63,125 nucleotides of DNA from Pseudomonadota bacterium (GTDB lineage Bacteria > UBA10199 > 2-02-FULL-44-16 > JAAZCA01), in contig JBDRBN010000026.1 of NCBI GenBank assembly GCA_043822785.1, forward strand, positions 1 through 63,125, read 5' to 3'. The position numbers were made by a program, and so were the translations under genes. The notes beneath the pieces are model-generated. The model was not told the origin of the DNA and made no database searches. It was given only the letters and a program-made list of their open reading frames with translations. This document shows, in pieces, positions 9,098-30,400 of the stretch (position 1 is its first letter; each line of letters opens with the position of its first letter).

Positions 9098-9176
9098 TTA
9101 ACATATCTTACTTCTTGATTATTGGTGTGTTTTAAGTATAATTAAAATATAGCTAAATGTTTACTGAATTTTAATT

Positions 9177-10382: not shown

Positions 10383-10390
10383 GGCGATGT

Positions 10391-10409: not shown

Positions 10410-10489
10410 ATACCGAACTTGCAAAATCGAGTCGGTTGACAGAAATAAGCCTAAAATGAGACACTATCTTTGAATTGAGGTGCATACAC

Positions 10490-11196: not shown

Positions 11197-11349
11197 AACC
11201 CGCTCGCGACTCATTCAGGCACTTTTGTATCTTGGTGGAACGGTATTGAGTTGAAGTTCCAAAATTCAGATTTTTATATTATTTCAGATATAAAAATCAT
11301 GGGGTTGTGTGTCGAGAAACGTCCCTTTGTTTTTCTTTCTCATTTTGGT

Positions 11350-13164
11350 TCATAAAAATGGCATGAATCTTCTGTTCTGCGATGAGGCGTGGATTGCGAG
11401 CGCAAGCCAGTCATCATCTTCCGTGTAAATAACCTTGAGCCTAAAGAGCTGGCGCAGCACCCTGCGGAGCTCTTTTTCAGGAATGTCCCTAAATCTTTCG
11501 CGCATCTCCTTGAAGCTTCGGATAGAGTCGCAGAAGAGATATAGCTCACGTGACCACCCGTCTAGACGATGACAACTATAAGAAGATCTAAAATCATTAA
11601 TTTCTATAGTCTTATCGTGATCCAAATAAAAAAGTAGAGGCATGCCTTCGGAAAGAGATTCTTCATAAACGGAGCTCCATCTTTTAATGTGCTTCTCAAG
11701 CGGGTGTTCCTTTTCTACCCCATTTCTTCCTTTAAATTTCTTATGCCAGAGTGAAAGATTAGAATATTTAGATGGAACGAGGTTCCCAAGTACACCTGCC
11801 TCGTTGATAGAGTGAATATGATATTTTCGTTGTTGTTGATGAACTAAAGATTGTTCTTGCAATTCAAAGAGCGTACATGACGGTGGATGGTAGGAAAGGC
11901 AATATTCAATGTTATTGATGCTTCTTTCAATATCCTTCCGAGATTCCAATGGATAACCTAATATTATATTCGAGGCATCGTAGCGAATTCCAAGTTCTTC
12001 ACAATGTTTCATTGTCTGATAATTATCAATTACCCTCAAACCTTTATTCATTTTTTTCAGAAGCGAAGAAGCAAGCGCTTCTATCCCAATAGTAACTCCA
12101 TCCACTCCTGATTTCTTCATAATTGAAAGAGTATCTTTTGGAATTCCAGCGCGTATTTCACAAAACAATTTGTAGTCGAGATGATGCTTGGAAAGAAGTG
12201 TAAATATTTTTCGTGCGTACCGGAAATCAACAAACCGATCGACAATAAATACTCTGTAGGTGCTATATTTCCGGCACACCCTTTCAATTGATTGTGAAAC
12301 TACCTTCACAGGCTTTACTCTGTATTTTTTAAAATAATTCCGATCACTACAGAAAGCACAATTATGAATACATCCTCTGCTCATTTCTACAGGGATGAAT
12401 GGGGATATTTCGGTTCCAGCTAACAAAGGACTATTTTCAATAAATGCAAAATATGAATCATAGTCAGGATCACCCATTTGTTTCATACTTCTAAGCTCAG
12501 TGCATTTATTGACTTGTATCCTACCATCCCTACGGTAAATTAGTCCTGGAATCTGACTCTCACTATTTTCATTCCAATCATTAGAAATGTTTAATAGTTT
12601 AAGATAAGGCTGTTCTCCTTCACCATCAATACACCAATCAACAAAATCAAAATGACGAAGGAGTGATTTTCCAAGATTTCCGGAACTACATTTACCACCT
12701 AGAACGACCTTTGTATTTCGATTATCCCTTTTAATCCATTTGGATAGAACCAATGCTGTAAACAACTGTTGGTAATCAACAGTAATACCAATCAGAGAAT
12801 ATTTTTTCTTTTTCAGCTGGCAATAATATTTCCAAAGTGCTGTCTTAAATTCACCACGAACAACCCTTCCTACGGAGGGTGATAGTAATCGATCAACATA
12901 CTTAATAAATTTAATATTATCTCTGAAAAGAAGGGAACCACTGATAGCGTCACCAAGATATTTATCCTGAAAGACAATCTGATTATATAATTCTAATCCA
13001 AGAATCGAAGCAATTTCCAAATGGAGATGATGCGTTTCTATCGGATGCCCATGCTGATTTGCAAAAGCTGACAAACAACCAATTGCAAGCGATGGTCTCT
13101 GGTAGTCCGCCCACGGCGGTGATATTAAGAGTGCTCGTTTTTTTTCATGTAATAAATTGACCAT
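11350..13164 (-). CDS. B12-binding-domain radical SAM enzyme, paralog 1 (RiPP-maturase-like)
   Basis: SRGCIHNCAFC CxxxCxxC. N-terminal Rossmann/B12-like region (VVLGGKCSSG). C-terminal module ...LRRVLRQLFRLKVIYTEDDDWLALAIHASSQNRRFMPFL is shared with paralogs 2 and 3. Confidence 0.85.
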   Translation of the reverse strand: MVNLLHEKKRALLISPPWADYQRPSLAIGCLSAFANQHGHPIETHHLHLEIASILGLELYNQIVFQDKYLGDAISGSLLFRDNIKFIKYVDRLLSPSVGRVVRGEFKTALWKYYCQLKKKKYSLIGITVDYQQLFTALVLSKWIKRDNRNTKVVLGGKCSSGNLGKSLLRHFDFVDWCIDGEGEQPYLKLLNISNDWNENSESQIPGLIYRRDGRIQVNKCTELRSMKQMGDPDYDSYFAFIENSPLLAGTEISPFIPVEMSRGCIHNCAFCSDRNYFKKYRVKPVKVVSQSIERVCRKYSTYRVFIVDRFVDFRYARKIFTLLSKHHLDYKLFCEIRAGIPKDTLSIMKKSGVDGVTIGIEALASSLLKKMNKGLRVIDNYQTMKHCEELGIRYDASNIILGYPLESRKDIERSINNIEYCLSYHPPSCTLFELQEQSLVHQQQRKYHIHSINEAGVLGNLVPSKYSNLSLWHKKFKGRNGVEKEHPLEKHIKRWSSVYEESLSEGMPLLFYLDHDKTIEINDFRSSYSCHRLDGWSRELYLFCDSIRSFKEMRERFRDIPEKELRRVLRQLFRLKVIYTEDDDWLALAIHASSQNRRFMPFL

Positions 13165-13281
13165 GTTCCATATTAATCAATTTGTAGATCATATATGACA
13201 TATTCTAATTTGATTTGATTGACACTTTAGGAAGGAATACCGTAGGTGCCCCGCGCTTTCTCTCGAAATTGAGTACGATTG

Positions 13282-13382
13282 ATCTTACCCCAAGAACTAG
13301 CACACGACAAAGTTGAGTCCCTTTGGAGTTATCCCACCGAAGGGACTCAACATCAAACCATCTTAGTTTCCTGGGGTAAGAT
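13282..13382 (-). promoter_or_regulatory. Nested stem-loop between the precursor-like ORF P1 and radical SAM paralog 1
   Basis: Outer 11-bp arms atcttacccca (13282-13292) and tggggtaagat (13372-13382). Inner 12-bp arms gttgagtccctt (13312-13323) and aagggactcaac (13340-13351). Confidence 0.6.
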
Positions 13383-13386
13383 TACA

Positions 13387-13542
13387 TTATTTTTTTCTTG
13401 CGAGACCGCTACCGCCAATTTCCTTTATCTTCTGAATGCCACCAATTTCCTTTATCTTCCGAACATTTAATGCGGATTTTGGAGTTCTAGCAGTGTAGCT
13501 TTTGGTTCTTGCCGAACTACTGGTCTTCTTTATCTGTGCCAT
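13387..13542 (-). CDS. Small ultra-basic peptide P1 (51 aa), candidate precursor peptide
   Basis: Hand translation: MAQIKKTSSSARTKSYTARTPKSALNVRKIKEIGGIQKIKEIGGSGLARKK. GAGGAG SD lies 7 nt upstream. Same strand as, and upstream of, radical SAM 1. Not in the ORF track. Confidence 0.6.
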   Translation of the reverse strand: MAQIKKTSSSARTKSYTARTPKSALNVRKIKEIGGIQKIKEIGGSGLARKK

Positions 13543-13606
13543 AGATAATCTCCTCTCTTATTGTCTTTAATTTACTTCTTTATTAAGAATACATTGAAAG
13601 AATAGT

Positions 13607-14701
13607 GTGTTGCAAGTTATAAACAAAGATACTATGAATACGCTTAATATAATCCTGCAGCGTTGGCAAGAGTATCTACGCAAAAAAAATAAGAAAGATT
13701 ACATAACTGCTTATATTCATATTCCATTCTGTTCCAGAAGATGCCGCTATTGTGATTTTCCCTCACGAGTAATAAAAAGTTCGAATGACATCGATGGATA
13801 TCTAGACTTTCTTCAGAAAGAAATGTCTTTGTTAGCGCCCCTTTTTAAGGGGCACTCTATTTCCGGTCTATATATCGGGGGTGGCTCGCCTTCAATATTG
13901 GAACTTCATCAGATGAAACGATTGTTTAAAATGATCGGAAGTTGTTTTGAGTTAGATCTTGATGATCAAAATATGTTCACGATCGAAATTAATCCGATTC
14001 ACTTAAATGAAGATAAAATTGACTTAATATCCTCGTCGATCGTTAACCGCGTAAGTTTGGGAATTCAATCACTTGATTCTAATGTTTTAGCAATAGAAGG
14101 AAGAGAATGCTTACCAATGGATAGAATGTTTTATTTACTCAGCCATTTGATGACTAAGATGAGGCATAAAGGTTGTAGGATCAACACTGATCTCATATTC
14201 GGATTGAATCAACAATCATTGAAGATCTTTCGTAATGACTTTTCGCGACTTGTTCAATGGGATATTCCTCGCATTACAATTTATCCTTGCAGACGAAATT
14301 ATGATAATGGTTGGAACCAGGCATTTAAGAGAAGAGTTGTAGCAACTGTGAAATCTATTCATGAAAGCTTTCCCAACTATGATTTAATTCAATCAATGGG
14401 TCATTTTAAGGGAATTAACCATTTTGAACCCGAGTACAATTTCATTAATAAAAACTATAATCACTGCTATAAAAAGAGATACCAGGATTTTCCCTTTATT
14501 CATAATAGCAATATCGGATTTGGTTATTATGCAGATTCCTTTATTCATCCAGGACGATGCTACTACCGGAGAACTAGAAGGGAATACATTATATTGCATG
14601 ATAAAGAATCGGGAATTGTTAATCCATGGCTAGACAAGTATTTTATTAATGCCGAGATGTGTAGAAAAGCAAAAATCAGCGCTGATAATATCCCCTATTG
14701 A
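13607..14701 (+). CDS. HemN-like (class C) radical SAM enzyme
   Basis: YIHIPFCSRRCRYCDF and LYIGGGSPS motifs of the HemN/coproporphyrinogen-oxidase-like family. Divergent from the P1/radical SAM 1 pair. Confidence 0.8.
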   Translation: MLQVINKDTMNTLNIILQRWQEYLRKKNKKDYITAYIHIPFCSRRCRYCDFPSRVIKSSNDIDGYLDFLQKEMSLLAPLFKGHSISGLYIGGGSPSILELHQMKRLFKMIGSCFELDLDDQNMFTIEINPIHLNEDKIDLISSSIVNRVSLGIQSLDSNVLAIEGRECLPMDRMFYLLSHLMTKMRHKGCRINTDLIFGLNQQSLKIFRNDFSRLVQWDIPRITIYPCRRNYDNGWNQAFKRRVVATVKSIHESFPNYDLIQSMGHFKGINHFEPEYNFINKNYNHCYKKRYQDFPFIHNSNIGFGYYADSFIHPGRCYYRRTRREYIILHDKESGIVNPWLDKYFINAEMCRKAKISADNIPY

Positions 14702-14989
14702 TTCTATTCACTATAAATCTGCAAATATTGCTACTCATATGGTTACGACCTGTAGTGCCCCCGGTAAGTCGAGACAATAATTTGGCTGAATGTAGCAGGG
14801 GTTTCGAGTCATCAGACAGCTTGTCTCCGTATGTGTGATCTCGACAAGTTGAGGGATACCATATCCTTCATTGCATCGAGATCGTCGTTCATATCGAATC
14901 CTCGTTTGCCGTTTTTCTTCTCACTCATGCAGCGGCCTTCATGGTGTTCAAGAACGCCTCCTAAACGATAGTGTCCGACACCTTTTTTT

Positions 14990-15160
14990 AAGAGTTTTGA
15001 TGAAATCAAAAAGCGCCTTCCTGATGTGAGCGATAAGGAGCTTAAGAGAACGCTCAATAAGCTTTTCAAGCTCAAGGTCATGTTTAAGGAAGGAAACGAC
15101 TGGCTCTCACTCGCAATCCACGCCTCACCAGAAAACCGCCGGCATATGCCGTTTCTATAA
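14990..15160 (+). pseudogene. Orphan 3' fragment (last 56 codons) of a radical SAM paralog
   Basis: Translates to KSFDEIKKRLPDVSDKELKRTLNKLFKLKVMFKEGNDWLSLAIHASPENRRHMPFL*. Nearly identical at DNA level to 17287-17457. No upstream gene body. Confidence 0.85.
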
Positions 15161-15295
15161 TAACATGCCCATGCCCCTGCCCCTGCCCGTTATCGAGAAT
15201 GTAGGACAAGCGAAATCCTGATCCCTTTTGCATTGAAATTTACGCTATTCCACGATATACAGCATGTCACTCACTTTCGATGGAAGGAGCCATTT

Positions 15296-15442
15296 ATGCC
15301 AAGGGGTCAAAAAAAATTTTTAAAACCTATACTCAAAATATCTGAAAAACCAAGAGGCCAAGGTAACAAACCACCAAGTAAACAAGGAAAAAAACCAGCT
15401 CCTGGTGGTGGAAAGAAAAGACGAGTCTCGCATCTTGTCTAA
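15296..15442 (+). CDS. Small ultra-basic peptide P2a (48 aa), candidate precursor peptide
   Basis: MPRGQKKFLKPILKISEKPRGQGNKPPSKQGKKPAPGGGKKRRVSHLV. GGAAGGAG SD upstream. The track shows a longer ORF from 15233. Confidence 0.6.
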   Translation: MPRGQKKFLKPILKISEKPRGQGNKPPSKQGKKPAPGGGKKRRVSHLV

Positions 15443-15505
15443 AAAAGCTCGCAGGACACTCAATCAACTCTTCAAGCGTCATTCACGCAATGAAAGGGGT
15501 CATTT

Positions 15506-15649
15506 ATGGTAAGAAAAAGAAATACATATTCAGCATCTACAGTCAAAAGCGTATCAAAAAAAACGGGTCGCACACGAGTTAAAGTGAAAACAAAAGGCTT
15601 ACGCACCCCTGTTGGTGTTAAGAAAAAACGAGTCGCGTATCCTGTCTAA
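15506..15649 (+). CDS. Small ultra-basic peptide P2b (47 aa), candidate precursor peptide
   Basis: Hand translation: MVRKRNTYSASTVKSVSKKTGRTRVKVKTKGLRTPVGVKKKRVAYPV. GAAAGGGG SD upstream. The stop is 11 nt before the radical SAM 2 start. Not in the ORF track. Confidence 0.6.
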   Translation: MVRKRNTYSASTVKSVSKKTGRTRVKVKTKGLRTPVGVKKKRVAYPV

Positions 15650-15660
15650 AAAGAACTCGA

Positions 15661-17388
15661 ATGAGCGCTCCCAAGTTTCTTCTTGTATCTCTACCCTGGG
15701 CCACATATCAGGGGCCCAGCCTTCCTATAGGCACGCTCGCAGCATACGCCCAAAACAAAGGATTCGACGTTGAGGCAAAACACCTTCATCTAAAAGCTGC
15801 GGCTCTTTTTGGACTAGAAATTTACGATCACTATTCCTATCACACTTTTGTTGGAGATGCCATTTCTGCCGCAATACTCTTTCCGGAAAAAGAAAAAGAG
15901 CTCGTTGAATATTGCGAATGCTGCGTCAAAGGGGCAAAGAGCCATCTCATCGATCTCAAGCATGCACTAAAAAGAATCTATGAAGAAGTGGATTGGGCTA
16001 AATACGATGTGGTAGGCTTCACCACTAGCTACCGTCAGATCTTTACCTCGCTCATCATAGCCAAATGGATAAAGCGCGACTATCCAGAAGTTAGAATTAT
16101 CCTGGGAGGACGCTTAGTGAGCGGAGCACAGGGTCATTCGATAATAAAACTCTTTCCACAGATCGATTATTGCGTGGATGGAGAAGGCGAGATAGCACTT
16201 GTATCTCTTTTAGATGAGATGAGGCATGCAAATGCCGATTTTGAAGCCAAGGTGCCTGGACTCATATACCGCAAGGAAGAAGAAATTTATGCAAATCCTA
16301 GGCAGCATCTCGAAAGCCTCGAGGACATGCCTGATCCGGATTACAGACATTACTATAAAACAATTGATAAACATCCATCTCTAAAGAATAGCGCATTGCC
16401 ACTCTATCTCCCGATAGAGGCAAGCCGTGGATGCAACTATAGGTGTGCCTTTTGTTCCCACAATATATTCTATGGCAACAACCGCAATCGACCGCCAAAG
16501 GAAGTTGCATCCTCAATCCAGCGTTTGACCGACCTCTATCGAATATCCTCTATTATTTTTATGGATCTGACCGTCCAGCCCGAGCATTCTGAAAAGCTGT
16601 TTGCGCACATTGCTGCGCAAAAACGCGATTACAAAATCTTCTGCGAAATGCGCGCCAATATATCCAAGGAAGTGCTCTTGATGATGAAGCAAGCTGGCTT
16701 AAGTGCGGTGCAGGTCGGGATAGAGGCGCTAGACACTCGCCTTCTTAAAAAAATAAATAAAGGAACTAGGCTTATAGATAATCTTCAAATCATGAAATTC
16801 TGTGAGGAGCTGGGAATTGGTTTAGATTATAATCTCATCTTGGGCTTTCCTACTGAAACCCAGACAGATATCGAGCGGTCCATTCAAGCCATCGAGTATG
16901 CCTCATCCTTTCCGCCTCCGTTAACGCTTATAAACTTCACACTCATTGATGGCTCTCCTGTTTTTTGCTCGCCACAGAAGTATGGCATCTATAAAAATGA
17001 CGATTGCTCAGAACTCTCATCCAGATTACCACGACATATCACTGCTGAAATGAAGCTGCTTTATAAAACTTATAAATCCAAGTATAAACCACGAGACTAT
17101 TCTAGACTGAACAGAAGGGTAGAGCGCTGGAGAAAACTATATAAGGAGGCAAGGAAAGAAGGCTGCCCTCTTTTTTACTATGTGGACTTCAATAGCTTTC
17201 TAAATATCGAAGATTACAGAACGGGTGTGGATTCCATCACCCTTGATAGCTGGGCACGCGAACTTTACCTCTTCTGTGACTCTATAAAGAGTTTTGACGA
17301 AATCAAAAGACGATTTCCTGATGTGAGCGATAAGGAGCTTAAGAGAACGCTCAATAAGCTTTTCAAGCTCAAGGTCATGTTTAAGTAA
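15661..17388 (+). CDS. B12-binding-domain radical SAM enzyme, paralog 2; C-terminal tail cut off by a TAA
   Basis: SRGCNYRCAFC motif. Ends ...KLKVMFK*. The 22 in-frame codons after the stop (17389-17457) encode GNDWLSLAIHASPENRRHMPFL. Confidence 0.85.
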   Translation: MSAPKFLLVSLPWATYQGPSLPIGTLAAYAQNKGFDVEAKHLHLKAAALFGLEIYDHYSYHTFVGDAISAAILFPEKEKELVEYCECCVKGAKSHLIDLKHALKRIYEEVDWAKYDVVGFTTSYRQIFTSLIIAKWIKRDYPEVRIILGGRLVSGAQGHSIIKLFPQIDYCVDGEGEIALVSLLDEMRHANADFEAKVPGLIYRKEEEIYANPRQHLESLEDMPDPDYRHYYKTIDKHPSLKNSALPLYLPIEASRGCNYRCAFCSHNIFYGNNRNRPPKEVASSIQRLTDLYRISSIIFMDLTVQPEHSEKLFAHIAAQKRDYKIFCEMRANISKEVLLMMKQAGLSAVQVGIEALDTRLLKKINKGTRLIDNLQIMKFCEELGIGLDYNLILGFPTETQTDIERSIQAIEYASSFPPPLTLINFTLIDGSPVFCSPQKYGIYKNDDCSELSSRLPRHITAEMKLLYKTYKSKYKPRDYSRLNRRVERWRKLYKEARKEGCPLFYYVDFNSFLNIEDYRTGVDSITLDSWARELYLFCDSIKSFDEIKRRFPDVSDKELKRTLNKLFKLKVMFK

Positions 17389-17582
17389 GGAAACGACTGG
17401 CTCTCACTCGCAATCCACGCCTCACCAGAAAACCGCCGGCATATGCCGTTTCTATAATAACATGCCCATGCCCCTGCCCCGTTACCGAATATATCTATAT
17501 TTTACAAGAAGTTAATTGATTCAAAATTCCTGACAACACTTTTAGACTTGCTAACGTTTATAACGTTAAGTATACTAACGTT

Positions 17583-18917
17583 ATGGACGTTAAGACAATA
17601 AACGAGCTGCTTTCTAGCGGAGAAATAGACAGAGAAGACCTCTGGCCACGTATCGTTGAAATGGAATCAAAAGCAGCCCAATTCAGGTTTGAATTCGGTT
17701 TGGATGAGCTGCCAAAAGAACCTGGCATTATAACTATCAGAGGACCACGCCAATATGGAAAAAGCACCTGGCTAGAAATGAATCTGAGAATATCTATTCA
17801 AGACTTTGGAAAGGGATCGGCATTTTATATCAATGGTGACGAGCTGGCATCCGCTGATGAGCTTGCAGAACAAATGAAAGTTTTGTGCAGAGCTTATTCT
17901 CGAGATGCAAAAATCAAAAGGTTGTTCATCGATGAGATAACCGCGGTAAAGAATTGGGAAAAAGCCATCAAAAAGGTGGTCGATCAGGGGCTTTTTAAAG
18001 ATATCCTCATAATTACGACAGGGTCAAAGGCTTCTGATCTGCGCCATGGCACAGAGCGTTTACCTGGGAGAAAAGGTCGTCTCAAGAAAAGCGAATATAT
18101 TTTTCTGCCAATCTCTTATCGTGAATTCAATTATCAAACCAGAAATGAGCTCGGCAATAAAGCTTGGATAGCCTACCTTCTGACTGGCGGTTCCCCAGTG
18201 GCATGCAACGATATTTATCAATTCGAAAAACTACCTGAATATTTTATTCAAATGACCCGCGATTGGGTATTGGGAGAGACGGTCTCGTCCGGCAGAAGCC
18301 GTATGCTGTTGACGCAGGTATTGCACACAATAATGAAATACGGAGGCCAGCCAGTTGGTTTTGCAAAACTCGCACGAGAATCAGGCCTTGCAAACAACAC
18401 AGTTGCTAGCGGTTATATAGAACAATTATCGGACCTGCTTTCGTTGCTTCCATCTTGGCCGTGGGATAGTCAGAGGGACATCTTTCTATTAAGAAAACCC
18501 TGCAAATTTCACTTCATCAATCTTGCAGCTGCCTTGTCTTTTCACCCTTCAATGCCGCGCCATATTCACGAATATGAAGCTTTGGATTCGCATGTGCAAT
18601 CATACTTGCTTGAATGGCTTGTTGCCCAAGAATTATGGCGACGCGCTGTTCTTGCACAAGTTGAAAATCCTGAAGTCATTGGTTTTTGGGCATCGAAGGA
18701 GCATGAAATTGATTTTGTAACGCATGACAGACAAATGATTGAAGTGAAACGTGGACGCGCGGGTCCGCTGGATTTTGGCTGGTTTAACAAAACTTTTCCA
18801 AATGAGAAGCTCACAGTCATTTGTGACACTCCCTTTGCAAGCGATCAGTTAATTGGCATCACAATTGACAAATTTCTTATGAACACACCTACTACACTCT
18901 ATTTTAATGAAGAGTAA
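17583..18917 (+). CDS. AAA+ ATPase with DUF4143/PD-(D/E)xK-like C-terminal domain (COG1373-type)
   Basis: Walker A GPRQYGKST. Walker B LFIDEIT. C-terminal EIDFV...IEVK nuclease-like motif. Confidence 0.8.
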   Translation: MDVKTINELLSSGEIDREDLWPRIVEMESKAAQFRFEFGLDELPKEPGIITIRGPRQYGKSTWLEMNLRISIQDFGKGSAFYINGDELASADELAEQMKVLCRAYSRDAKIKRLFIDEITAVKNWEKAIKKVVDQGLFKDILIITTGSKASDLRHGTERLPGRKGRLKKSEYIFLPISYREFNYQTRNELGNKAWIAYLLTGGSPVACNDIYQFEKLPEYFIQMTRDWVLGETVSSGRSRMLLTQVLHTIMKYGGQPVGFAKLARESGLANNTVASGYIEQLSDLLSLLPSWPWDSQRDIFLLRKPCKFHFINLAAALSFHPSMPRHIHEYEALDSHVQSYLLEWLVAQELWRRAVLAQVENPEVIGFWASKEHEIDFVTHDRQMIEVKRGRAGPLDFGWFNKTFPNEKLTVICDTPFASDQLIGITIDKFLMNTPTTLYFNEE

Positions 18918-18926
18918 TGAACATAA

Positions 18927-18978
18927 TCCCATCCATCCGCGCCTCGCCCGAAAACCGCCGGCATATGCCGTTTCTTTA
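18927..18978 (+). repeat. Orphan copy (D) of the radical SAM 3' tail
   Basis: ccatccgcgcctcgcccgaaaaccgccggcatatgccgtttctttaa. The 26-nt core gaaaaccgccggcatatgccgtttct is identical to 17428-17453. Confidence 0.85.
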
Positions 18979-18995
18979 AAAAAAGTTCAACTAAG

Positions 18996-20530
18996 AGAGG
19001 CTGTTGATAAAGTAGGGGGTTTAGGTCATTAAAAATCGGGCGATTTTTTGAAAAAAGGCTGAAATTTCGGTTTGCCCCCTGTATCGCCTCCTTCTGTTTT
19101 CCCTTTCCCCGGCTCTCGGGGGCATGGCTCTTAGGGAAGGGGTACTGTTACGCAACCGCCGCCATCGGAACAAGTCTCACCGGCGGAGCATTGATTAGGA
19201 TATTTATCAACCGCTGAATATTTGCAGCCAGCGCCGTGAAGAAACACTGAAACCTGAATTTTGCCAGACCACGATACCGGCACCGCCTCATCCCAAACCC
19301 GTTTTTCAATTGTCCGTTCTTTCGCTCGATCGCTCCGCGCTTTTTCATGAGCTCCTTGTATGTTGCAGTCTCGTTAAACGCTGCCTTACGCTTCCTATAC
19401 ATAAAACTCGGTGATGCCAGCACAGTAATGCCGCCCCCGCCATGTCACATAACTTGCCGACGTCTCTTCACCTCCAGGACATCGCATGCTCGGCGCTCCA
19501 CTCTGGCCCTGGATCAATTCAGACATATCATTCGCAAAAACGCTGCTCTCGCTCCTCTGTTTCAGAGGCGTCACCACCTTCGTGCCTTTTCCTTCCAGAT
19601 ACATACCCAAGCCTTCATCCGCATCTCCCACCACTGATGCGGGCTTGATCCCAGCACACGAAAGCTCCGCCATCATCTCACCCACTCCCCACGTGTCATG
19701 CCGATTCCCAAGCATCCCTTCGATCGCCGTGATGAATCCATCCCCGCTCTTCTCCAGATACTCCAACAGCCGACGTGCTGCCTGTACCAGCTCCACCAAA
19801 TGATTCTTCTCCTCCCCGCGCTTTGCAATCTCAAACACAACTCCTAACTCCAAATTCTTTGCCAACTGATTCCCCACTCCCCCTGGAAGCCTCTCCGCGC
19901 TTCGCAACACCCCCTTAATCCCCATCCGCAATAACTCGATCGTGTTCGGTATCGCGATATCCGCGATCACATGCGTGGTGTCGATCACTCCAGTCTCCCC
20001 AGCTTTTATTAGCCCAGCCTGGATAAGCGCCTCTCGAAATCTATCAAAACATACCGCCGTCTGATCATTCTCCACCAGCATCCCCCGAAACTTGCACAAC
20101 ACCGTGTGATCGAATCCTCCGTCATCCATCGGCAATCCCAATGCGTACTTCGTAGCCAAATTAAACCGGATCTGCCGCTCCATCTCCCGATCCGACAACC
20201 GATACCGCTGCTGCAATATCAGAGAACATGCAATCAACGATGGCGGGATCGCTCCTCTCCCTCGGTCCGGACTCTAAGCCCATGCAAAATCCTCGTCGCT
20301 GATCAGAGGCCGAACCACTCGCCTGAAATGCCACTCGAAACTCTCCTCGTCGATCAAATGCTCGATCCATTCCGTACCCCAAAAACTCCCTTGCCCACCA
20401 CCGCGCTTTAGCATTTTTTACCCCCGTCGATTTTATGACGCATCCTCAAATCACCTGCTGATATGCATAAATACTACATCTCCACCTATTTTCATACCTA
20501 ATATGCATCGAGAGAAAATCAACAGCCTCT
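18996..20530 (-). mobile_element. Decayed IS5/IS1182-like insertion sequence
   Basis: 13-bp terminal inverted repeats agaggctgttgat (18996-19008) and atcaacagcctct (20518-20530). They enclose a disrupted DDE transposase. Confidence 0.75.
19148..20411 (-). pseudogene. DDE transposase (DUF772 N-terminal type) with an in-frame TAG and a frameshift
   Basis: N-terminus MLKRGGGQGSFWGTEWIEHLIDEESFEWHFRRVVRPLISDEDFAWA*SPDRGRGAIPPSL... continues into ORF 19395-20237. The C-terminal domain (ERKNGQLKNGFGMRRCRYRGL) is in another frame (19148-19423). Confidence 0.75.
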
Positions 20531-20727
20531 AAGACGTGTCAAATTTTTAACTTCCAAAAGGCGCTATTTTTCATTATGGTAACAGGTATGATTTTAAATG
20601 TTATTATGTTATCAAGATGTTATGGTATAGTGTTTTTTTGCACAGAACTTGCATAAATTCAGTGCTCGAACTGATTGGGCACTTATAACTGAAACAAGAG
20701 GAATAATAGAAAAATGAGGAGGTTGTT

Positions 20728-20826
20728 ATGAAAAAGACAGGAAGTATCACCGCAAAGAAAGCTGGTTTTAAGAGTAAGCTCGGCCGTCGCGCTGTTCTTC
20801 CTGCTAAAAGTACGCGGTCAAGATAG
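20728..20826 (+). CDS. Small ultra-basic peptide P3 (32 aa), candidate precursor peptide
   Basis: Hand translation: MKKTGSITAKKAGFKSKLGRRAVLPAKSTRSR. GAGGAGG SD lies 6 nt upstream. The stop is 29 nt before the radical SAM 3 start. Not in the ORF track. Confidence 0.6.
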   Translation: MKKTGSITAKKAGFKSKLGRRAVLPAKSTRSR

Positions 20827-20855
20827 ATCTGAAATGGGTCGATTAGAAGATTAAT

Positions 20856-22673
20856 ATGAATGCTAACAGGGCTGCCATCATATCACTCCCCTGGGCTGAA
20901 TATCGTGCGCCATCAGTGGCAATCGGCGCACTTGCATCCTTTGCAAGAAGATATGGGCATAAAGTCGATGCGCTTCAGCTCCACCTTCCTTTTGCTGCTC
21001 TCTTTGGTATAGATCGATACGATAAAATTCTAGATGATGTAGCAGACGAGTCATCAAAAGGCCATGTTGGAGAGGCGCTGTGCGCAGCTCTTTTGTATAA
21101 AGACGAAAAACATAAGCTTTTGGAATATATTGGAAGATCTATAGATTATCCCCAGAAAAATCTTCGTTCACTCGAGCGCTCGCTTACTCAAATATATAAA
21201 ACCCATGATTGGAGCCACTACAGGCTGATAGGGTTTTCAACAACTTTGGGCCAGCTCTTTGCTTCACTTCTGTTTGCCTCATGGATAAAGAAGGACCATC
21301 CCAACATCCGCATAGTCCTTGGAGGAGATCCAGTAAGGGGTGCGCTAGGCGCATCGATATTGAAAACAAATCCACACATCGATTGGTGCGTTGACGGGGA
21401 AGGGGAGCTGGCCTTCACAGCCCTGCTTAATGGACTAAAGCAGAAAACTGGAACCTTTGAGACAGAGGTTCCGGGTCTTATATATCGCGATGGTGATAGG
21501 ATTTGTCATAATGAGAAAAAACAGATCCCTGATCTTTCAAATCTTCCAGATCCAGATTTTGATGATTATTATAATACTCTTAACGAGCTTGATAGCCTAG
21601 CTAACAAGGAACTCTATGCGTTTTTGCCGATAGAGACAAGCAGAGGGTGCCTGTTCAGGTGTGCCTTTTGCGGAGATCGAAGCGTATGGCAGGGTTATCG
21701 CATGCGCAAACCAGAGGCTGTAGCTAAGCTTGTTAAGAGATTAACCAAAAAAAATCGAGTCGACAGGATTATCTTCACTGCACTTATGATGTCGCCTGAC
21801 TATCTTAAAACGTTATCAAGATTGCTATCCAAACATCGCAGAGATTATAAAATCGTCACTCAATTGAGAGCCGACACCCCTAAAGAGGTTCTCATCGAGT
21901 TAAAGAAAGCAGGTGCATGCGAAGCGCAGATTGGTATAGAAGCGCTTGATTCAAAGCTTCTTAAAAAGATGAATAAAGGCACGACAACTATTCAGAATCT
22001 TGCTGCCCTCAAATATTGTGCAGAAATCGGCTTAGATGCAGGGCAGAGCAATTTAATGATAAATTTTCCCACAGAAACAGGGGCAGATTTAGATAGGACA
22101 ATATCGACAATCGATTTCGCAATACAATATAGCACGCCTAACGTAGCTTGGTTTATTCTTAAAATTGGATCACTTGTTGCAGAACAGCCACAAAAATATG
22201 GGGTTACATCTATTAATCATAATACGTACTTTTATGAATATTTACCAACAAGGATAGCGCATGAAATCAAGTTGCAATATCTCTCGTTCAAATCCAGGAA
22301 CATGACAAAGCAACATCACGAATTTTTGAATAAAATGAAGAAGTGGAAGAAGAGCTATGAAGAAGCTAAAAAGGCAGGCCGCTATTTCCTTTCATATACC
22401 GACTGTAAAGATTTTTTACGAATTGAAGACTTCAGAGAAGGTTCCAGTTCAGTAACACTCGAAGGCTGGATAAGAGATTTATATCTCTATTGCGATAAGA
22501 TAAGAAAGCTGGATGAGATTCAAAGGCAATTTTCAGAAATCGATTCAAAGGAACTAAAGCGGACTCTTCAAGAACTCTATAAGCTCAAGGTCATGTTCAA
22601 GGAGGGCAATGACTGGCTCTCGCTTGCCATCCATGCATCACCTGAAAACCGCCGGCATATGCCGTTTCTTTAA
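20856..22673 (+). CDS. B12-binding-domain radical SAM enzyme, paralog 3 (full-length tail)
   Basis: SRGCLFRCAFC motif. IVLGGDPVRG B12-like region. C-terminus ...ELKRTLQELYKLKVMFKEGNDWLSLAIHASPENRRHMPFL. Confidence 0.85.
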   Translation: MNANRAAIISLPWAEYRAPSVAIGALASFARRYGHKVDALQLHLPFAALFGIDRYDKILDDVADESSKGHVGEALCAALLYKDEKHKLLEYIGRSIDYPQKNLRSLERSLTQIYKTHDWSHYRLIGFSTTLGQLFASLLFASWIKKDHPNIRIVLGGDPVRGALGASILKTNPHIDWCVDGEGELAFTALLNGLKQKTGTFETEVPGLIYRDGDRICHNEKKQIPDLSNLPDPDFDDYYNTLNELDSLANKELYAFLPIETSRGCLFRCAFCGDRSVWQGYRMRKPEAVAKLVKRLTKKNRVDRIIFTALMMSPDYLKTLSRLLSKHRRDYKIVTQLRADTPKEVLIELKKAGACEAQIGIEALDSKLLKKMNKGTTTIQNLAALKYCAEIGLDAGQSNLMINFPTETGADLDRTISTIDFAIQYSTPNVAWFILKIGSLVAEQPQKYGVTSINHNTYFYEYLPTRIAHEIKLQYLSFKSRNMTKQHHEFLNKMKKWKKSYEEAKKAGRYFLSYTDCKDFLRIEDFREGSSSVTLEGWIRDLYLYCDKIRKLDEIQRQFSEIDSKELKRTLQELYKLKVMFKEGNDWLSLAIHASPENRRHMPFL

Positions 22674-22704
22674 TAACATGCCCGTTTCTGTGCCCGATGC
22701 AGTA

Positions 22705-23835
22705 CTACGTAATGAACTCAAGATAATTTTGCCTGGTTATTAATTCGTATTTTGAATCCTTATAAGCCTCGATCCAATCTTTAGGAGCCTTAGCTTTCCT
22801 TGGAGCCCATTTTACTTCATATGCATGGAGCAAGCCTTCGCGCTCTTCGATAAGATCGATTTCTTTTTTATCGTATGTTCTCCAAAAATAGTTGTTGGTG
22901 CTTATCTGCAGATATTCCTGTTTTTTGATTCGCTCTACAATGACATAGTTCTCCCAGAGCATGCCAATATCATTTCTGAGATTTAACGAATTAAAATTGT
23001 TGATGATGGCATTGCGAATACCTACATCGTAGAAAAAATACCGTGAGGTCTTGGATATCTCTTTACGGAGATTTCTGCTAAAACCCGATAGGTGAAAGAC
23101 GACAAAGGTCTTTTCAAGAAGATCCAAATATTTATCAATCGTATTCTTGCTAATGCCTAGCTGTGTACCAAGCTCATCACAAGAAACCTCTTTGCCAATC
23201 TGAAAAGCAAGTAACTGTAAGAGCCTTACTATTTTGTCGGAGTGTCTAATCCCATCAAGCTCTAGTATATCTTTATATAGATATGAGGCGACTATTTCCT
23301 TTAGATATCGTTCTCGCTCATGGTCATCATTAGTTATTACCACTTCAGGATATGAACCATAAATCAACCTGCTTTCCAGATGTGCATCGATTTCGAATTG
23401 CTCTTCCATTTGCATTATCTCCAGCTGAGCCAGGGGATACATTTTGAGCGTTTTCTTTCTTCCTGTAAGGGGTTCACCTACATTTCTAGCAAGATCAAAT
23501 GATGAAGAACCTGTTGCTATGATCTCAATGCCTTCGACGTGATCGACCAGCAGCTTAAGGTTCAAACCGATGTTTTGAATTTTTTGAGCCTCATCCACTA
23601 CGAGCAGCCTATTCTTTCCAACAAACCCTTTGAGTTTTGCGATAGATTGGCTGCTTAAATACTCTTGAACATTTATGTCTTCTCCACTCACCATCAAAAA
23701 TGACCTTTTTTCCTTTTCAAGAAACTTCTTCAAAAGGGTGGTCTTACCGCACCTGCGAGGGCCATAAATAGTAACAACCATGTTGGGCGAAAGTGCCTTT
23801 TTTAGGTTTTTAAGCTGATATTGCGGAATATACAT
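22705..23835 (-). CDS. AAA+ ATPase with DUF4143/PD-(D/E)xK-like C-terminal domain (COG1373-type)
   Basis: Walker A GPRRCGKTT. Walker B LVVDEAQ. C-terminal EIDLI...YEVK motif. Confidence 0.8.
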   Translation of the reverse strand: MYIPQYQLKNLKKALSPNMVVTIYGPRRCGKTTLLKKFLEKEKRSFLMVSGEDINVQEYLSSQSIAKLKGFVGKNRLLVVDEAQKIQNIGLNLKLLVDHVEGIEIIATGSSSFDLARNVGEPLTGRKKTLKMYPLAQLEIMQMEEQFEIDAHLESRLIYGSYPEVVITNDDHERERYLKEIVASYLYKDILELDGIRHSDKIVRLLQLLAFQIGKEVSCDELGTQLGISKNTIDKYLDLLEKTFVVFHLSGFSRNLRKEISKTSRYFFYDVGIRNAIINNFNSLNLRNDIGMLWENYVIVERIKKQEYLQISTNNYFWRTYDKKEIDLIEEREGLLHAYEVKWAPRKAKAPKDWIEAYKDSKYELITRQNYLEFIT

Positions 23836-24045
23836 AGACTCTATTTATTATAATTCAGTCAATTAACTGACTATATTTTATCAAATACAGTCAATTAATC
23901 AATACATATCTGCTATCCTTGCCTCGCCGCAATCAATCTCTACATGTTTTCTTTGAAATATATCATATAATATCAATATGTTATATGATGTATATATGAT
24001 CGGATAACATAAATTGAGAAAATGATTATTTTAACTGACACCTGG

Positions 24046-24084
24046 GTCGTCATTTATCATGATAAATGACGACTGAAGTTTTTT
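24046..24084 (+). other. Perfect 13-bp-arm palindrome followed by a T6 run
   Basis: gtcgtcatttatc-at-gataaatgacgac then tgaagtttttt. There is no plus-strand gene upstream for it to terminate. It sits just inside the orphan tail E. Confidence 0.5.
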
Positions 24085-24114
24085 GGAAAAACTGTGGGGC
24101 CGCAAGTTTTGTTG

Positions 24115-24178
24115 ATGACTGGCTCTCGCTTGCCATCCACGCATCGCCCTGAACCAGCCAGCATATGCCGTTTCTATG
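24115..24178 (+). repeat. Orphan copy (E) of the radical SAM 3' tail
   Basis: gactggctctcgcttgccatccacgcatcgccctgaaccagccagcatatgccgtttctatgaa. The first 23 nt are identical to the tail of paralog 3, which ends at 22673. Confidence 0.85.
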
Positions 24179-24242
24179 AAAATGAAAAAGGCCCGCAAGA
24201 AATGATATTCCCCGTGGGCCATGTTTCATATTGTAGCCGAAA

Positions 24243-24461
24243 TTACTTCTGTGTTGCTGTCGGCTCTTCCAATTTCTTCTGCTCCTCATCGATACACTTT
24301 TTCAAAGCATCGCCAGCCAGATTCTTTGCCTTGCAAACTTCCTCTGCTTTCTTCTCAGTAGCTGTCTTTGTGGCTGCGGCTGTCTTTGTTTCCTCTGCCT
24401 TTAGGCCTGCTGCGACCAGCACGAAAGCTAGTGCTACCATTACGCCAATTAGTTTCTTCAT
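24243..24461 (-). CDS. Small secreted Lys/Glu/Ala-rich protein
   Basis: Strong SD (AAAGGAGGTG). Signal peptide MKKLIGVMVALAFVLVAAGLKA. Two Cys residues. Confidence 0.65.
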   Translation of the reverse strand: MKKLIGVMVALAFVLVAAGLKAEETKTAAATKTATEKKAEEVCKAKNLAGDALKKCIDEEQKKLEEPTATQK

Positions 24462-24588
24462 ATTATCACCTCCTTTCGGGTGGTCTTCTATAGCCCTCTC
24501 ATGAGGTGAAGATTAAACGAAAATGATTTTTTCTTAATTTTAAAGATACTTGACGGCAATACCCTCTTATATGCTATACGCGCTGGCC

Positions 24589-25269
24589 ATGAAGATCCTT
24601 GTTGTAGAAGATGAACAAAAGGTAAGGGATTTTGCGGCAGAAGCCCTAAATCAGGCTGGTATGGTAGTGGATTCAGTCGGTTCAGAAGATGAGATGATGG
24701 CTGCTATACGGACCTTTAAGTATGATGTCATCGTGCTGGATCGCCTGCTTGGAAACATTGATTCCATAACATCCATCCCCCATATACGACGCCTTGCACC
24801 GCAAACCCGCATTTTAGTCTTAAGCGCCCTTGCTGAAGTTAATGAGCGTGTAAGGGGTCTTGTTGAAGGGGCGGACGATTACCTCGGCAAGCCCTTTCAT
24901 GTATCGGAGTTTGTAGCTCGCATACGCAGCCTATGCCGTCGCACAGATGGGTCGCCTGCCGGCAAGCGTAAAACAGTGATCGAATATTCTGATCTGCACA
25001 TAGACCTTGAAACCCAACGCGTAGTGCGCGGAATCAGGCGAGTGGATCTAACTGCCAAGGAGTTCAAAACGCTCTGCGCCCTTGCCCGCAACCCGGGGCA
25101 CATACTTTCCAAGACCATGATCCTGGATGAAGTGTGGGATATGAATCACATCCCCGGGAGCAATGTGGTAGAGGTGACTATTGCAACTCTTAGGGCCAAG
25201 ATCGATCGAGGCGCAAAACCGCTCATCCAAAGTCGCCGCGGCGTCGGATACTGGCTTGGAGAATCGTGA
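24589..25269 (+). CDS. OmpR-family response regulator
   Basis: MKILVVEDEQ receiver start, DVIVLD, and a winged-helix C-terminus (RGVGYWL). The track ORF starts earlier, at 24550. Confidence 0.85.
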   Translation: MKILVVEDEQKVRDFAAEALNQAGMVVDSVGSEDEMMAAIRTFKYDVIVLDRLLGNIDSITSIPHIRRLAPQTRILVLSALAEVNERVRGLVEGADDYLGKPFHVSEFVARIRSLCRRTDGSPAGKRKTVIEYSDLHIDLETQRVVRGIRRVDLTAKEFKTLCALARNPGHILSKTMILDEVWDMNHIPGSNVVEVTIATLRAKIDRGAKPLIQSRRGVGYWLGES

Positions 25270-27063: not shown

Positions 27064-27138
27064 GGAGATTGCTTCGCTTCACTCGCAATGACATCCGATG
27101 TGTCATTGCGAGGAGCGTTTAGCGACGAAGCAATCTCC
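27064..27138. repeat. Hairpin repeat doublet abutting the stop of GIY-YIG gene 1
   Basis: ggagattgcttcgcttcactcgcaatgac, a spacer, then gtcattgcgaggagcgtttagcgacgaagcaatctcc. Confidence 0.85.
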
Positions 27139-27443: not shown

Positions 27444-27472
27444 GGAGATTGCTTCGCTTCGCTCGCAATGAC
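27444..27472. repeat. Single hairpin repeat unit upstream of GIY-YIG gene 1
   Basis: ggagattgcttcgcttcgctcgcaatgac. Confidence 0.8.
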
Positions 27473-27481
27473 ACACAGGAC

Positions 27482-30400
27482 TTACTTCACAATCAACTCT
27501 GTTACTGGGTCGCCCTGCCTACGAAAGGCAATGAAGTTGGCTGCAAGCGTTTCTAACTCGTCGTCGCGGGCGCGCATGCAACCGTGTGTTGGGTGTATGG
27601 GATTGTTGTTTCTGCCGCCGTGGATGAAAAGCTCTCTGCGCCATGCTGTCAGGTCCACACCTGAGGTAGGTGCGCCAGCTCTAACCCTTATAGATCCTTG
27701 CAATAAACTGTAGTTACCCTGGCGGCCTTGACCCCTGCTCCAGTACGGCCCACTAACGCGGCTTTCGCCCTTTTTTGGCGTGCCTAATCCAAATCGTTCA
27801 TAGAACTTGTCGCGATACTCTTTGGTATAAAACTCAGGCACGCCTAGTGAGAAAGTACCATCTGGAAATGGGCCATACTTTCCTTCGGCTAAAGGATTGG
27901 CATTTGGTCTTACTGTACGATTTGCTACTTCGTATATACTAACAACATAACCATTCTTATCCTCCAAAACCATTTTCTCTGTGCTTCGTTCGAATATGAG
28001 CTTGGCAAGGCCAAACGGATCCCAATACGTGGAAGGATCGCCGCCTGCATATACATAAAGACTCATCTCTCCTTGATATGCTCTAGCAGATAATCCGCTA
28101 AAAAATCTGCCGTATGGATATGCTTCATAAGCGTTGCTTATTGAAAGCGGTCTGTTGGGAATGGATGCGCGCGATGTTGTGCCTTGCGATGCATGATATG
28201 AAAGCCCAGGTCCAAAAGCTGATTCATCATTATAATAGTGCACGATCTTGTACCCCAACGGATCAGGCGTTATGAACCGCATAAGCTCTGGATCATAATT
28301 GCGATAGCGCATGTATGTTAGCTTGCCATCCGCTCCTCTTATTTGTCCTGCAAATCCAAAGAGGCTTTCATATTTCGATTGATCTGTTTCGCAGCCTATC
28401 TCTTCACCATAGGGGCTATAGTCGCACCTGGCTGAAAGCTCGTTATCAATGCCGTCTATGCCGCGCACTGAATCCATGCGGTCGGTTATGAATAAGGAAG
28501 GAAAGTCCGATGTTACCGAAGCAACAGGAGCGCCAAGTCCATCTGCATATACAAAGCTCTGTGCTGCTTCGGTTGAATCTAAATGTGCTAAGCGCCAGCC
28601 ATCCCAGATGAACTCGTGCGAGATATCGGCAAAGTTCTCTTCGATCCTTCTATCAAAGGCATCGTAGCTATATCGAGCAATGGTCTCTTCGCCATAGCGC
28701 GCTGAAGTAAGCCTGCCCCAAGCATCGTATTCATAGTTCCACTTACCATCGGAGATGAGATTGCCGCTGGAATCATATTGAAATTGTTGGACGGGGATTG
28801 CTTCGTCGTCCCGCAAAGCGGGACTCCTCGCAATGACAAACTGGTTGTCATCGCGAGCCTCGATAGAGGCGTGGCGATCTCCTAGAATCTTAATAACCTG
28901 ATTCAGTTCATTGTACTTCATCTGCCTTGTGCCGTTTTCATCTTTAGCGCTTAAGATATTGCCCACAGGATCAAGCTCATATGTCCACTTTCTGTTCGAA
29001 TCTTCAAAAGCGCCTGTTAGCTGCCCCATGGCATCGCGCACATACTGCCTGGATACGTCCCTTAACGAATCCTTCTCGGTTTTCACGCGGCCTGCTTCGT
29101 CGAGCTCATATTTCCATTGAGCCACAGGTCTGCCATCAGAAGATTTATACTGCCGCGCTATCTCTCTTCCCCAATCATCTCGCTCAAGACCAAGCGCAAT
29201 CCTGCCTGCCATATTCTGACGGATGATATTTCCCAACTCGTCACGCTCAAAGGACGCTATGCGACTATTTTTGCCCATGACCGCCTTCAACAAACCTGCA
29301 GGCGTATAGTAATAAAAGAATGAATCTTTACCAGGAAGGCCAAGCGATACCACTTGATTTGCATCGTCAAACCCGCGTGTTATCCACCAGCTGCCTACTG
29401 ATTCTGCAAAAGGGCGGGATAGCGAATCATAAACAAATCTGGAGATAGCTTCTCCATCCTCTGCGTAAGTTAATCTGCCCATGCCATCGTGCCAAAAGCG
29501 CTGCACGCCCTTTGCCTCTTTTGTGTGGGCCTCGCGCAAGGCAAGCCGGCCTGCTGCATCGTAGGTAATTGTTACTGACCTGCCCGGTCCTTGTATGCTC
29601 AGCACCCTGCCTGCTCCATCGTATTGAGTGCGCTTTATGCCGCCATCTGCAAAACGCTCTAAGACCAAACGATCCAGATCATCATAGCCAAACTCCGTGG
29701 CGTTTCCATTTGCATCTGTTGCGTTTGTCAGCCGGCCGTTGTAATCCCAAACAAATTTTGTGATCGCGCCCTCGTGATTTACGGCCGTGCGCCTGCCAAT
29801 ATCATCCACATCAAAAATAGTAATACCTTCTACAGGGTCCCTTATGCGTATGAAATTTCCCTGGCCATCGTATTCGTACTGCCTGGGTTTTGTCCAGCCG
29901 TGGTTAAAGCTCGTAAGATCTCCGGCTTCATTATATGAAAACACCTCAAGGTCTAGCTTGAGATTGCTTTGCGGAGCCTGCCCTGAGCTAGGTCGAAGGG
30001 CTCGCAATGACAAACCGTGTTCCTTACTCTCTATGTATGATTCAACAACTCGGCCGAGTTTGTCGCGAACATATTCTTGTTTCATTCCGTCTGCATCTAT
30101 TTCAGCAACAACCAAACCCAACCCATCGCGCAAGATTTTTGCGCGCGCACCTAGCGGATCCATTGATCCAATAATGTTGCCGGCTTCATCATATTCGAAG
30201 CTCGTCTTCACCCATCTGGATTTTGATGGATCATCGAGCCAAAGCCTTTGTGCGCGTTGTACAAGAAGTTCGCCTTCATAGGTTAGATGCTCTTCGGCAA
30301 GAAGTTTGCCGGAAGCATCAAGGTTTTTGATCGCATTTATGCGGCCGGCATCGTCTCTTGCAAACTCAGTGCGATTTCCCAGTGCATCTTTTTTTGCAAC

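Follow-up and report, generated by a model that had tools for sequence, protein, structure and literature searches.

The DNA analysed here, referred to as the window, is a stretch of 63,125 nucleotides (nt) from contig JBDRBN010000026.1 of a Pseudomonadota bacterium (GCA_043822785.1). It contains three paralogous radical S-adenosylmethionine (SAM) genes (P1 to P3) and three genes for ATPases of the AAA_14/DUF4143 type (W1 to W3), which lie in a low-GC island at ∼9.0 to 24.5 kb. GC content was 0.35 to 0.46 in the island compared to ∼0.45 to 0.55 outside, and 0.53 in the kilobase containing a transposase fragment. The 3′ end of the radical SAM genes, here called the tail, recurs as three orphan copies (A, D, and E). 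The new result concerns the DNA separating tails from orphans: single ATPase genes (W2 and W3) lie there, and all three ATPase genes are flanked by direct repeats. The original prediction for this region had taken the tail for a recombination hotspot with a palindrome at its core; it overlooked the ATPase genes and the third repeat pair (9031/10391).

Whole-protein scores of all three radical SAM paralogs exceeded the curated TIGR03975 cut-off of 281.85 bits (P1, 295.6; P2, 333.3; P3, 308.9 bits), and matches to the Radical_SAM and B12-binding Pfam families backed this assignment. The mutual identity of the paralogs was 37 to 43%. Between P2 and P3, nucleotide identity was 50 to 58% in the gene body and 69% over the final 150 nt; at the extreme end, 20/21 positions matched, and the two genes have 26 identical nt in common there. 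The tail is therefore the only part of these paralogs similar enough for homologous recombination. One or two short, very basic (K/R-rich) peptide genes precede each radical SAM gene (13387-13542 on the minus strand, P2a, P2b, and 20728-20826). P2a and P2b end in RRVSHLV and KRVAYPV, respectively. From their position beside TIGR03975 genes, these peptides may be precursors of ribosomally synthesized and post-translationally modified peptides (RiPPs). An exact-match look-up with a radical SAM protein of the window gave no entry. The closest radical SAM homologue was only 46% identical, and no syntenic relative was found; metagenome scans with a 23-nt tail core and with a 23-nt core of the repeat at another locus (L015) were both empty. 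Related loci in metagenome-assembled genomes (MAGs) contained 5 to 7 tandem radical SAM paralogs, several of them with the same tail, and no orphans. Two of these clusters (L001 and L002) also contained Peptidase_M29 and acetyltransferase genes.

A search of the window for CGGCATATGCCG, allowing at most one mismatch, returned five matches, all on the plus strand (15140, 17437, 18959, 22653, and 24159), compared to 0.18 expected from dinucleotide shuffles. Together with a repeat search, this bore out the perfect 12-bp palindrome and the five plus-strand tails that had been claimed. The orphan coordinates and direct repeats of ∼200 bp were likewise recovered, as 14990-15183 versus 17287-17480 (194 nt, 97% identity); 22503-22696 was 72% identical to this pair. 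The members of the resulting 68-nt tail family start at 15096 (A), 17393 (P2), 18915 (D, last ∼48 nt only), 22609 (P3), and 24115 (E). A sixth tail, at the end of P1 on the minus strand (11350-11415), was degenerate and without the palindrome. The tail translates to ...KVMFKEGNDWLSLAIHASPENRRHMPFL followed by the stop codon, and the palindrome comprises the codons CGG-CAT-ATG-CCG, within the R-R-H-M-P of the conserved C-terminal peptide NDWLSLAIHASPENRRHMPFL, which is retained in homologues of only 44 to 46% overall identity. The tail represents the 3′ coding end of genes for TIGR03975 radical SAM C-methyltransferases. Tail copies had been placed at the ends of paralogs 2 and 3, which is correct for P3; the P2 open reading frame (ORF), however, is cut off by a nonsense TAA that lies 22 codons short of the conserved end and corresponds to GAA in orphan A (15089-15091). 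P2's own tail is now untranslated, and the protein is without the conserved last 22 residues, so that P2 probably represents either a pseudogene or an enzyme with a crippled C terminus.

The three ATPases all passed the gathering scores of both AAA_14 (PF13173, N-terminal) and DUF4143 (PF13635, C-terminal), the criterion used here for this family (COG1373). They also matched the profile hidden Markov models of PDC-S01, a single-gene phage-defence candidate in PADLOC, with E-values of 3.4e-144 (W1), 4.2e-21 (W2), and 5.9e-152 (W3). DUF4143 (COG1373) appears among the PD-(D/E)XK families as one without known function (PMC3424549), and the C-terminal columns of the catalytic motif (D ... E-x-K) read EID ... 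EVK in W2 and W3 and EID ... QVA in W1. From family membership, W1 to W3 are predicted to be ATPase-nucleases and candidate defence genes. A low-confidence structure model (predicted local distance difference test, 65) had an AAA+ fold of the clamp-loader/ORC/RuvB type, and a fold search with this model returned generic AAA+ matches only; sequence searches found no relative of the ATPases with a solved structure. Homologues of W1 with 65 to 71% amino acid (aa) identity occurred in Patescibacteria, Elusimicrobiota, Gammaproteobacteria, and Bacteroidota. A literature search found no link of DUF4143 or PDC-S01 to mobility or flanking repeats.

W1, W2, and W3 are only 23 to 26% identical to each other, yet all are flanked by repeats with one geometry: one copy ends 122 to 279 bp before the ATG, and the other begins 8 to 28 bp past the stop codon (Table 1). 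Among the 13 ORFs of 300 to 566 aa in the window, only these three were flanked, with repeat scores of 37, 33, and 19 compared to at most 14 for the others. No transposase domain was found in the inserts, which lack the hallmarks of a classical DNA transposon or insertion sequence (IS), and the inner ends of 22 elements had neither terminal inverted repeats nor conserved termini; repeat length was not fixed but ranged from 17 to 195 bp. CATGCCC was considered as a terminal inverted repeat and rejected, because it is missing from the opposite ends of W2 and W3. Just before each ATPase start lie paired palindromes or direct repeats (17552-17592, 23837-23898, 24046-24073, and 9053-9098); in W2, for example, TAACGTTTATAACGTTA and TAACGTTATGGACGTTA overlap the start codon. 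These palindromes and repeats look like operators for autoregulation via the winged-helix region of the protein.

Table 1. Genes, repeat copies, and orphan tails in the island (positions in the window)
Feature	Position	Strand	Remarks
W1 repeat, upstream copy (CTCGCAAGATGATTTTGTA)	9031-9049	+	19 bp, perfect (19/19); spacing of copies 1360 bp
W1, AAA_14 + DUF4143, PDC-S01	9177-10382	+	PADLOC PDC-S01
W1 repeat, downstream copy	10391-10409	+	8 bp past W1 stop
P1, TIGR03975 RiPP C-methyltransferase	11350-13164	−	Degenerate tail
Orphan A	14990-15192	+	Last ∼170 nt of radical SAM ORF + ∼28 nt of downstream DNA; frame intact
Peptide genes P2a and P2b	15296-15649	+	15296-15442 and 15506-15649; short, basic, candidate RiPP precursors
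P2, radical SAM	15661-17388	+	Shortened by TAA at 17386-17388; old frame runs to 17457
W2 repeat, P2 tail copy	17413-17460	+	48 bp, 43/48, paired with D; homology to orphan A extends to 17483
Insert with ATPase W2 as sole gene	17484-18934	+	W2 at 17583-18917; promoter-like region, paired palindromes
W2 repeat, orphan D (IRASPENRRHMPFL, stop)	18935-18982	+	Putative displaced radical SAM end; begins 17 bp past W2 stop
IS1182/IS5-type transposase fragment	19395-20237	−	Between D and P3
P3, radical SAM, intact	20856-22673	+
W3 repeat, P3 tail copy	22609-22676	+	68 bp, 57/68, paired with E
W3, AAA_14 + DUF4143, PDC-S01	22705-23835	−	Convergent with P3; stop 28 bp from P3 tail
W3 repeat, orphan E (DDWLSLAIHASP, stop)	24115-24182	+	Putative displaced, decaying radical SAM end; then hairpin shared with convergent small gene

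The three orphans are not of one kind. Orphan A is 97% identical to 17287-17483, its left edge is a breakpoint (14989/14990) against unrelated DNA, and no partner copy was found to its left. It stands before P2a-P2b-P2 in exactly the way that successive tandem units follow one another in L001 and L002. From this context, the best reading of orphan A is a stump left by an upstream tandem paralog, a separate case from D and E. Duplication or gene conversion would have given it a very recent common origin with the P2 end, and the rest of its paralog would have been lost at the breakpoint. Orphan A is also the intact version of this end, and P2 the interrupted one. The stretch abutting the breakpoint (14701-14989) had no match and contains a short minus-strand ORF (MSEKKNGKRGFDMNDD...); directly upstream of it lies a HemN-like radical SAM gene (13607-14701).

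Orphan D differs from the P2 tail by three synonymous changes and one nonsynonymous change, and both its stop codon and the DNA downstream are its own. The first 12 codons of E differ from P3 only synonymously, save for one N-to-D exchange, with decay beyond. A post-stop stretch (TAATAACATGCCC...) is common to the P2 end, the P3 end, and A, over ∼28 nt for A and P2 and ∼20 nt for P3, and is missing from D and E. Because the homology of A and P2 extends up to 17483, the left edge of the W2 insert lies ∼28 bp downstream of the gene, which resembles the insertion past rpoD at the locus L120 (see below). The original prediction had each short orphan resembling its nearest upstream paralog most, and took this for local duplication. 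The direction of the resemblance held, but it was marginal: D matched P2 at 41/45 and P3 at 40/45 positions, and E matched P3 at 55/66 and P2 at 52/66, with 58/66 between P2 and P3 themselves. Local duplication did not hold up, since the changes in D are mostly synonymous and D has its own stop and downstream DNA, which argues that D stems from another functional allele and is not an in-place copy.

We then asked how general the flanking repeats are, using an alignment of W1 to W3 as query in a survey with one genome per species, which gave 80 loci, 73 of them usable. Members were counted as flanked if a direct repeat scoring at least 16 was present in the same geometry as in W1 to W3. This was the case in 18/73 members, all from different species, with repeats of 16 to 195 bp and 85 to 100% identity. 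In the inverted-orientation control, 2/73 reached the score (Fisher's exact test, P = 1.5e-4), and shifted-window controls almost never did. In a gene-centred control, 25 of 94 ATPase ORFs (some of them redundant) were flanked, compared to 2 of 63 size-matched ORFs in the neighbourhood (P = 7e-5); these two were a distant DUF4143-like ATPase and a Fic protein. The flanking-repeat scar is thus a general pattern, present at about a quarter of the sampled DUF4143 genes across bacterial phyla. The family itself is large: a search with W3 gave 13,417 clusters at 50% identity, across many phyla. No homologue was found in Escherichia coli, and viral contigs gave two loci, neither of them usable.

The repeat sequences differed in every element, and the W1 repeat and ∼20 repeats in other genomes were unrelated to each other. 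Two elements that were 86% identical at the nucleotide level (L068 and L069) had unrelated repeats. DNA common among relatives extended only from ∼30 to 75 bp before the ATG through the stop codon (for W3, from about −60 to the stop codon). Near-perfect repeats occurred in W1, L020, L051, and L068. Among plasmids, 1 of 13 sampled members had a repeat (L090), and this Pseudomonas mendocina plasmid has a single-copy relative in Pseudomonas aeruginosa (L092). Since the insert in L090 also holds a second, diverged origin/iteron region, the pair was discounted as a clean empty site. The two origin-like regions of L090 (1443-1792 and 3291-3730) lie astride the DUF4143 gene, and each has an A+T-rich stretch, a different set of iterons, and a DnaA box; L092 has one such region. 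L094 also proved a misfit as a simple case, as it carries a 394-bp internal gltX fragment beyond the ATPase, with copy differences of 3/2/7 at codon positions 1/2/3.

Several of the repeats coincided with the ends of host genes. When 'empty' sites were reconstructed, the repeat ended 0 to 7 nt from the stop codon of a co-oriented host ORF in six loci (L040, L051, L054, L067, L068, and L074). It also ended at the host stop in W2 and, with the host gene convergent, in W3. Both copies keep the in-frame stop and continue into unrelated DNA. Differences between the copies at codon positions 1/2/3 were 2/0/10 in L040, 0/0/5 in L054, 0/0/2 in L051, 2/0/2 in L067, 0/1/0 in L068, 1/0/1 in L074, and 0/1/3 in W2. 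In total this amounts to 5/2/23, i.e., 23 of 30 differences at position 3 (P = 1.5e-6). Random decay would be expected in a duplicate that arose in place, but these differences are mostly synonymous, which argues that the copies diverged as working gene ends. Having diverged while both were working, they should come from different lineages or paralogs. The repeat therefore appears to consist of two alleles of a gene end rather than of a newly duplicated target.

A series of related Anaerolineae loci allowed the order of events to be followed between rpoD and nuoA. In L125, nuoA follows directly after rpoD, which represents the empty site. L117 has a DUF5131 fragment in this interval and no ATPase, while L124 has an intact DUF5131 gene and an unknown gene of 295 aa. 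In L120, the ATPase is present as a clean insertion of 1237 bp, 61 bp past the rpoD stop and without a repeat. L067 contains the same ATPase at the same place, collinear with L120 at 84.5% nucleotide identity, but the gene is broken 29 bp before its stop. There it joins a 66-bp rpoD end reading ...DYLE at its C terminus, compared to ...DYLA in the intact rpoD and ...DYLG in many relatives. Past this end follow a DNA methyltransferase gene, the DUF5131 fragment, and nuoA. Since L120 is repeat-free and L067 has the repeat, primary insertion makes no repeat, and the repeat is a later scar. L124 was rejected as donor lineage of the rpoD fragment and methyltransferase of L067, as it has a different gene there. 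Overall, the rpoD-nuoA interval is a variable hotspot in this group, being empty or occupied by a DUF5131 gene or fragment, the 295-aa gene, the ATPase, or the ATPase with the methyltransferase.

These observations led us to favor, with a probability of roughly 0.55, a scenario in which the ATPase gene is brought in together with a foreign gene end by one-sided recombination, and the resident end is displaced. The ATPase would first have lain a few tens of bp past a radical SAM gene of another lineage or paralog, much as the insertion lies past rpoD in L120; for W2 and W3 alike, this may have been a gene of the 'CATGCCC' type in another genome or paralog. It would have arrived with the end of that radical SAM gene attached. 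The first joint would have formed by homologous recombination in the conserved tail, which would have acted as anchor, and the second would have been illegitimate, right by the ATPase gene and inside the resident tail. The incoming end would thereby complete the ORF, and the resident end would be orphaned together with its stop codon and the DNA that follows it. A circle bearing a gene end would yield the same product on integration (Campbell-type), and the 19-bp repeat around W1 could have arisen by the same process. Because little foreign DNA would remain past the ATPase stop, and joints placed farther away would lie within shared backbone without leaving a scar, the downstream copy would be expected to hug the stop. 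D and E would accordingly be former working radical SAM ends displaced beside inserted single ATPase genes, a reading that we hold on slightly better than even odds. Several points weigh against this scenario. No close relative was found, so that there is no empty or intermediate site for the window itself, and a hypothetical donor lineage has to be assumed for D and E. The codon-position test comprises 30 differences at 7 loci, and the decayed E (4 of 9 differing codons nonsynonymous, internal stop) is little informative. The perfect intergenic repeats of W1 (19/19) and L020 (17/17) fit a fresh target duplication equally well. Finally, the presence of two unrelated ATPases in the same 50 to 70 bp of two paralogs needs either a target preference or the anchor argument.

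A true long target duplication, in which the ATPase-nuclease or a host enzyme would cut with a stagger of 17 to 195 bp and gap filling would duplicate the target, would account for the repeat-element-repeat layout with variable repeats and for the near-perfect copies in W1, L020, L051, and L068. The protein has a domain of the PD-(D/E)XK family (PMC3424549), and restriction-modification genes provide a precedent (PMC2853133). We nevertheless consider it unlikely, because the copies differ mainly synonymously, each with its own stop and downstream DNA, because the same ATPase was inserted in L120 without duplication, and because the repeat edges coincide with stop codons, which a cut at the DNA level would not recognise; conserved element termini were not found either. 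Alternatively, D and E could, like A, be stumps of further full-length tandem paralogs whose bodies were replaced or deleted. Related clusters do have 5 to 7 tandem paralogs with the same tail, D and E are no closer to the neighbouring tail than P2 is to P3, both have their own downstream DNA, and the IS fragment and the P2 nonsense codon show that the cluster is decaying. This explanation would, however, require three deletions each sparing only the last 48 to 200 bp and two replacements fitting exactly one ATPase gene, and it leaves unexplained both the 19-bp repeat of W1 and the same scar at single-copy host genes such as rpoD; we regard it as rather improbable.

Least probable by far is the view of the palindrome as core of a site-specific recombination site (Xer/dif-like, integron attC-like, or similar). 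It is perfect in all tail-repeat copies but E, which has one mismatch, and cassettes occur in both orientations relative to it. However, the palindrome is coding and varies among homologues: it is intact in A/P2, P3, and two L001 genes but broken in P1 (AGA TTC ATG CCA), in a further L001 gene (L001c; AGG CAT ATG CCG), and in L002 (CGT CAC ATG CCG). The repeat edges lie 24 nt (D) or 44 nt (E) upstream of it on the inner side and ∼12 nt downstream on the outer side, at the stop codon. The palindrome is absent from the W1 repeat, which like the ∼20 repeats elsewhere is unrelated in sequence. A dif site consists of two 11-bp arms and a 6-bp spacer, and a palindrome without spacer fits neither dif nor attC. 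No integrase-type or Xer-like domain was found among the island ORFs tested, and an Rfam scan of 8500-25000 gave zero matches. From its codons, the palindrome is a by-product of codon choice for RRHMP. Of the proposal that the tail is a recombination or insertion target, what stands is that joints fall in the tail and that foreign single-gene cassettes lie exactly between tail and orphan in two cases, but not the palindrome as a recombinase site. For this RiPP cluster, the orphan tails are accordingly read as scars of invasion and decay rather than as a dedicated cassette-exchange site.

Among known systems, restriction-modification genes provide the closest parallel with their 'insertion with long target duplication' (Nobusato et al. 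2000, cited in Furuta, Abe & Kobayashi 2010, PMC2853133). There, repeats of 45 to 420 bp often overlap host gene ends, the mechanism is described as unknown, and solitary type IV nuclease genes are among the cases (PMC2853133). In both systems, nuclease-bearing selfish or defence genes without transposase or integrase are flanked by variable direct repeats at host 3′ ends. They differ in that the family here is COG1373/DUF4143, the copies differ synonymously, and a repeat-free insertion exists. Under the structural definition of Furuta et al. (insert of <20 kb, no mobility gene, direct repeats of >30 bp; PMC2853133), W2 (48 bp) and W3 (68 bp), with a single ORF each, would be included, whereas the 19-bp repeat of W1 is under the 30-bp threshold. 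The definition also asks for an empty-site genome in which one repeat copy lies between aligned flanks; for the window, no sufficiently close relative was found, and elsewhere in the family L117 and L125 are empty rpoD sites. Their assumption that the repeat is a resident target copied at insertion disagrees with the third-position differences (23/30), the separate stops, and the repeat-free L120.

Islands at the 3′ ends of tRNA or protein genes (attL/attR) share with the present case the incoming replacement end and the displaced end left as an orphan repeat that stops at the gene end; unlike those islands, there is no integrase here, the cargo is a single gene, and near-identical elements occur at unrelated sites. 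IS1634-family insertion sequences make long direct repeats of variable length and have a DDE transposase and terminal inverted repeats. The elements described here share the long variable repeats, but neither the transposase nor the inverted repeats were found. A Mycoplasma transposon with such long variable repeats is cited by Furuta et al. (PMC2853133). The process looks closer to homology-facilitated illegitimate recombination, or to the Campbell-type integration of a circle bearing a gene end; in the former, one homologous anchor and one illegitimate joint bring foreign DNA beside a conserved gene. A retained, duplicated anchor end is not known as its regular product. In natural transformation, where it was reported by de Vries and Wackernagel and by Prudhomme and coworkers, both in 2002, the outcomes are reportedly mostly insertions with deletion.

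As is also the case for their PDC-S01 relatives, W1 to W3 adjoin toxin-antitoxin-like genes. Directly 3′ of the downstream W1 repeat lies such a pair (10475-11196), consisting of a small ORF overlapping a nucleotidyltransferase gene with weak AbiEii, DUF6036, and DUF2204 matches. Relatives of the ATPases in other genomes sit amid MNT/HEPN, PIN/MazE, and AbiEii modules (L093 to L108 and L122). Just outside the island, a minus-strand gene (27482-34054) encodes an RHS-repeat protein of 2190 aa (DUF6531 + RHS), and beyond it lie a Ser/Thr kinase gene and several large ORFs without Pfam match. A short palindromic repeat, CTCGCAATGACA...TGTCATTGCGAG, occurs at 27064-27115, 27444-27473, and 28824-28857, and also in the left flank of L079, by the ATPase element of a Thermodesulfovibrionales MAG. 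The shared motif hints at a Nitrospirota-like origin of the window.

The DUF4143 family is very large and spans many phyla, and it has had neither a known function nor a known means of spread. The scar found beside about a quarter of the sampled members provides a cheap marker for the recent arrival of these genes and a testable explanation for the movement of defence-type genes between hotspots in the absence of recombinases. It may also allow a 25-year-old puzzle, the long target duplications, to be reinterpreted as two gene-end alleles joined by one-sided recombination. More tentatively, DUF4143/PDC-S01 genes might themselves be self-promoting single-gene mobile elements, whose nuclease would make breaks by its own gene or at a homologous target, so that one-ended homologous repair would carry the gene, along with part of its neighbour, to the corresponding gene end in a different genome or paralog; we consider this doubtful at present. 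If true, it would constitute a mode of mobility without transposase or integrase, and it would explain both the long 'target duplications' of restriction-modification genes and the growth of defence islands by stacking.

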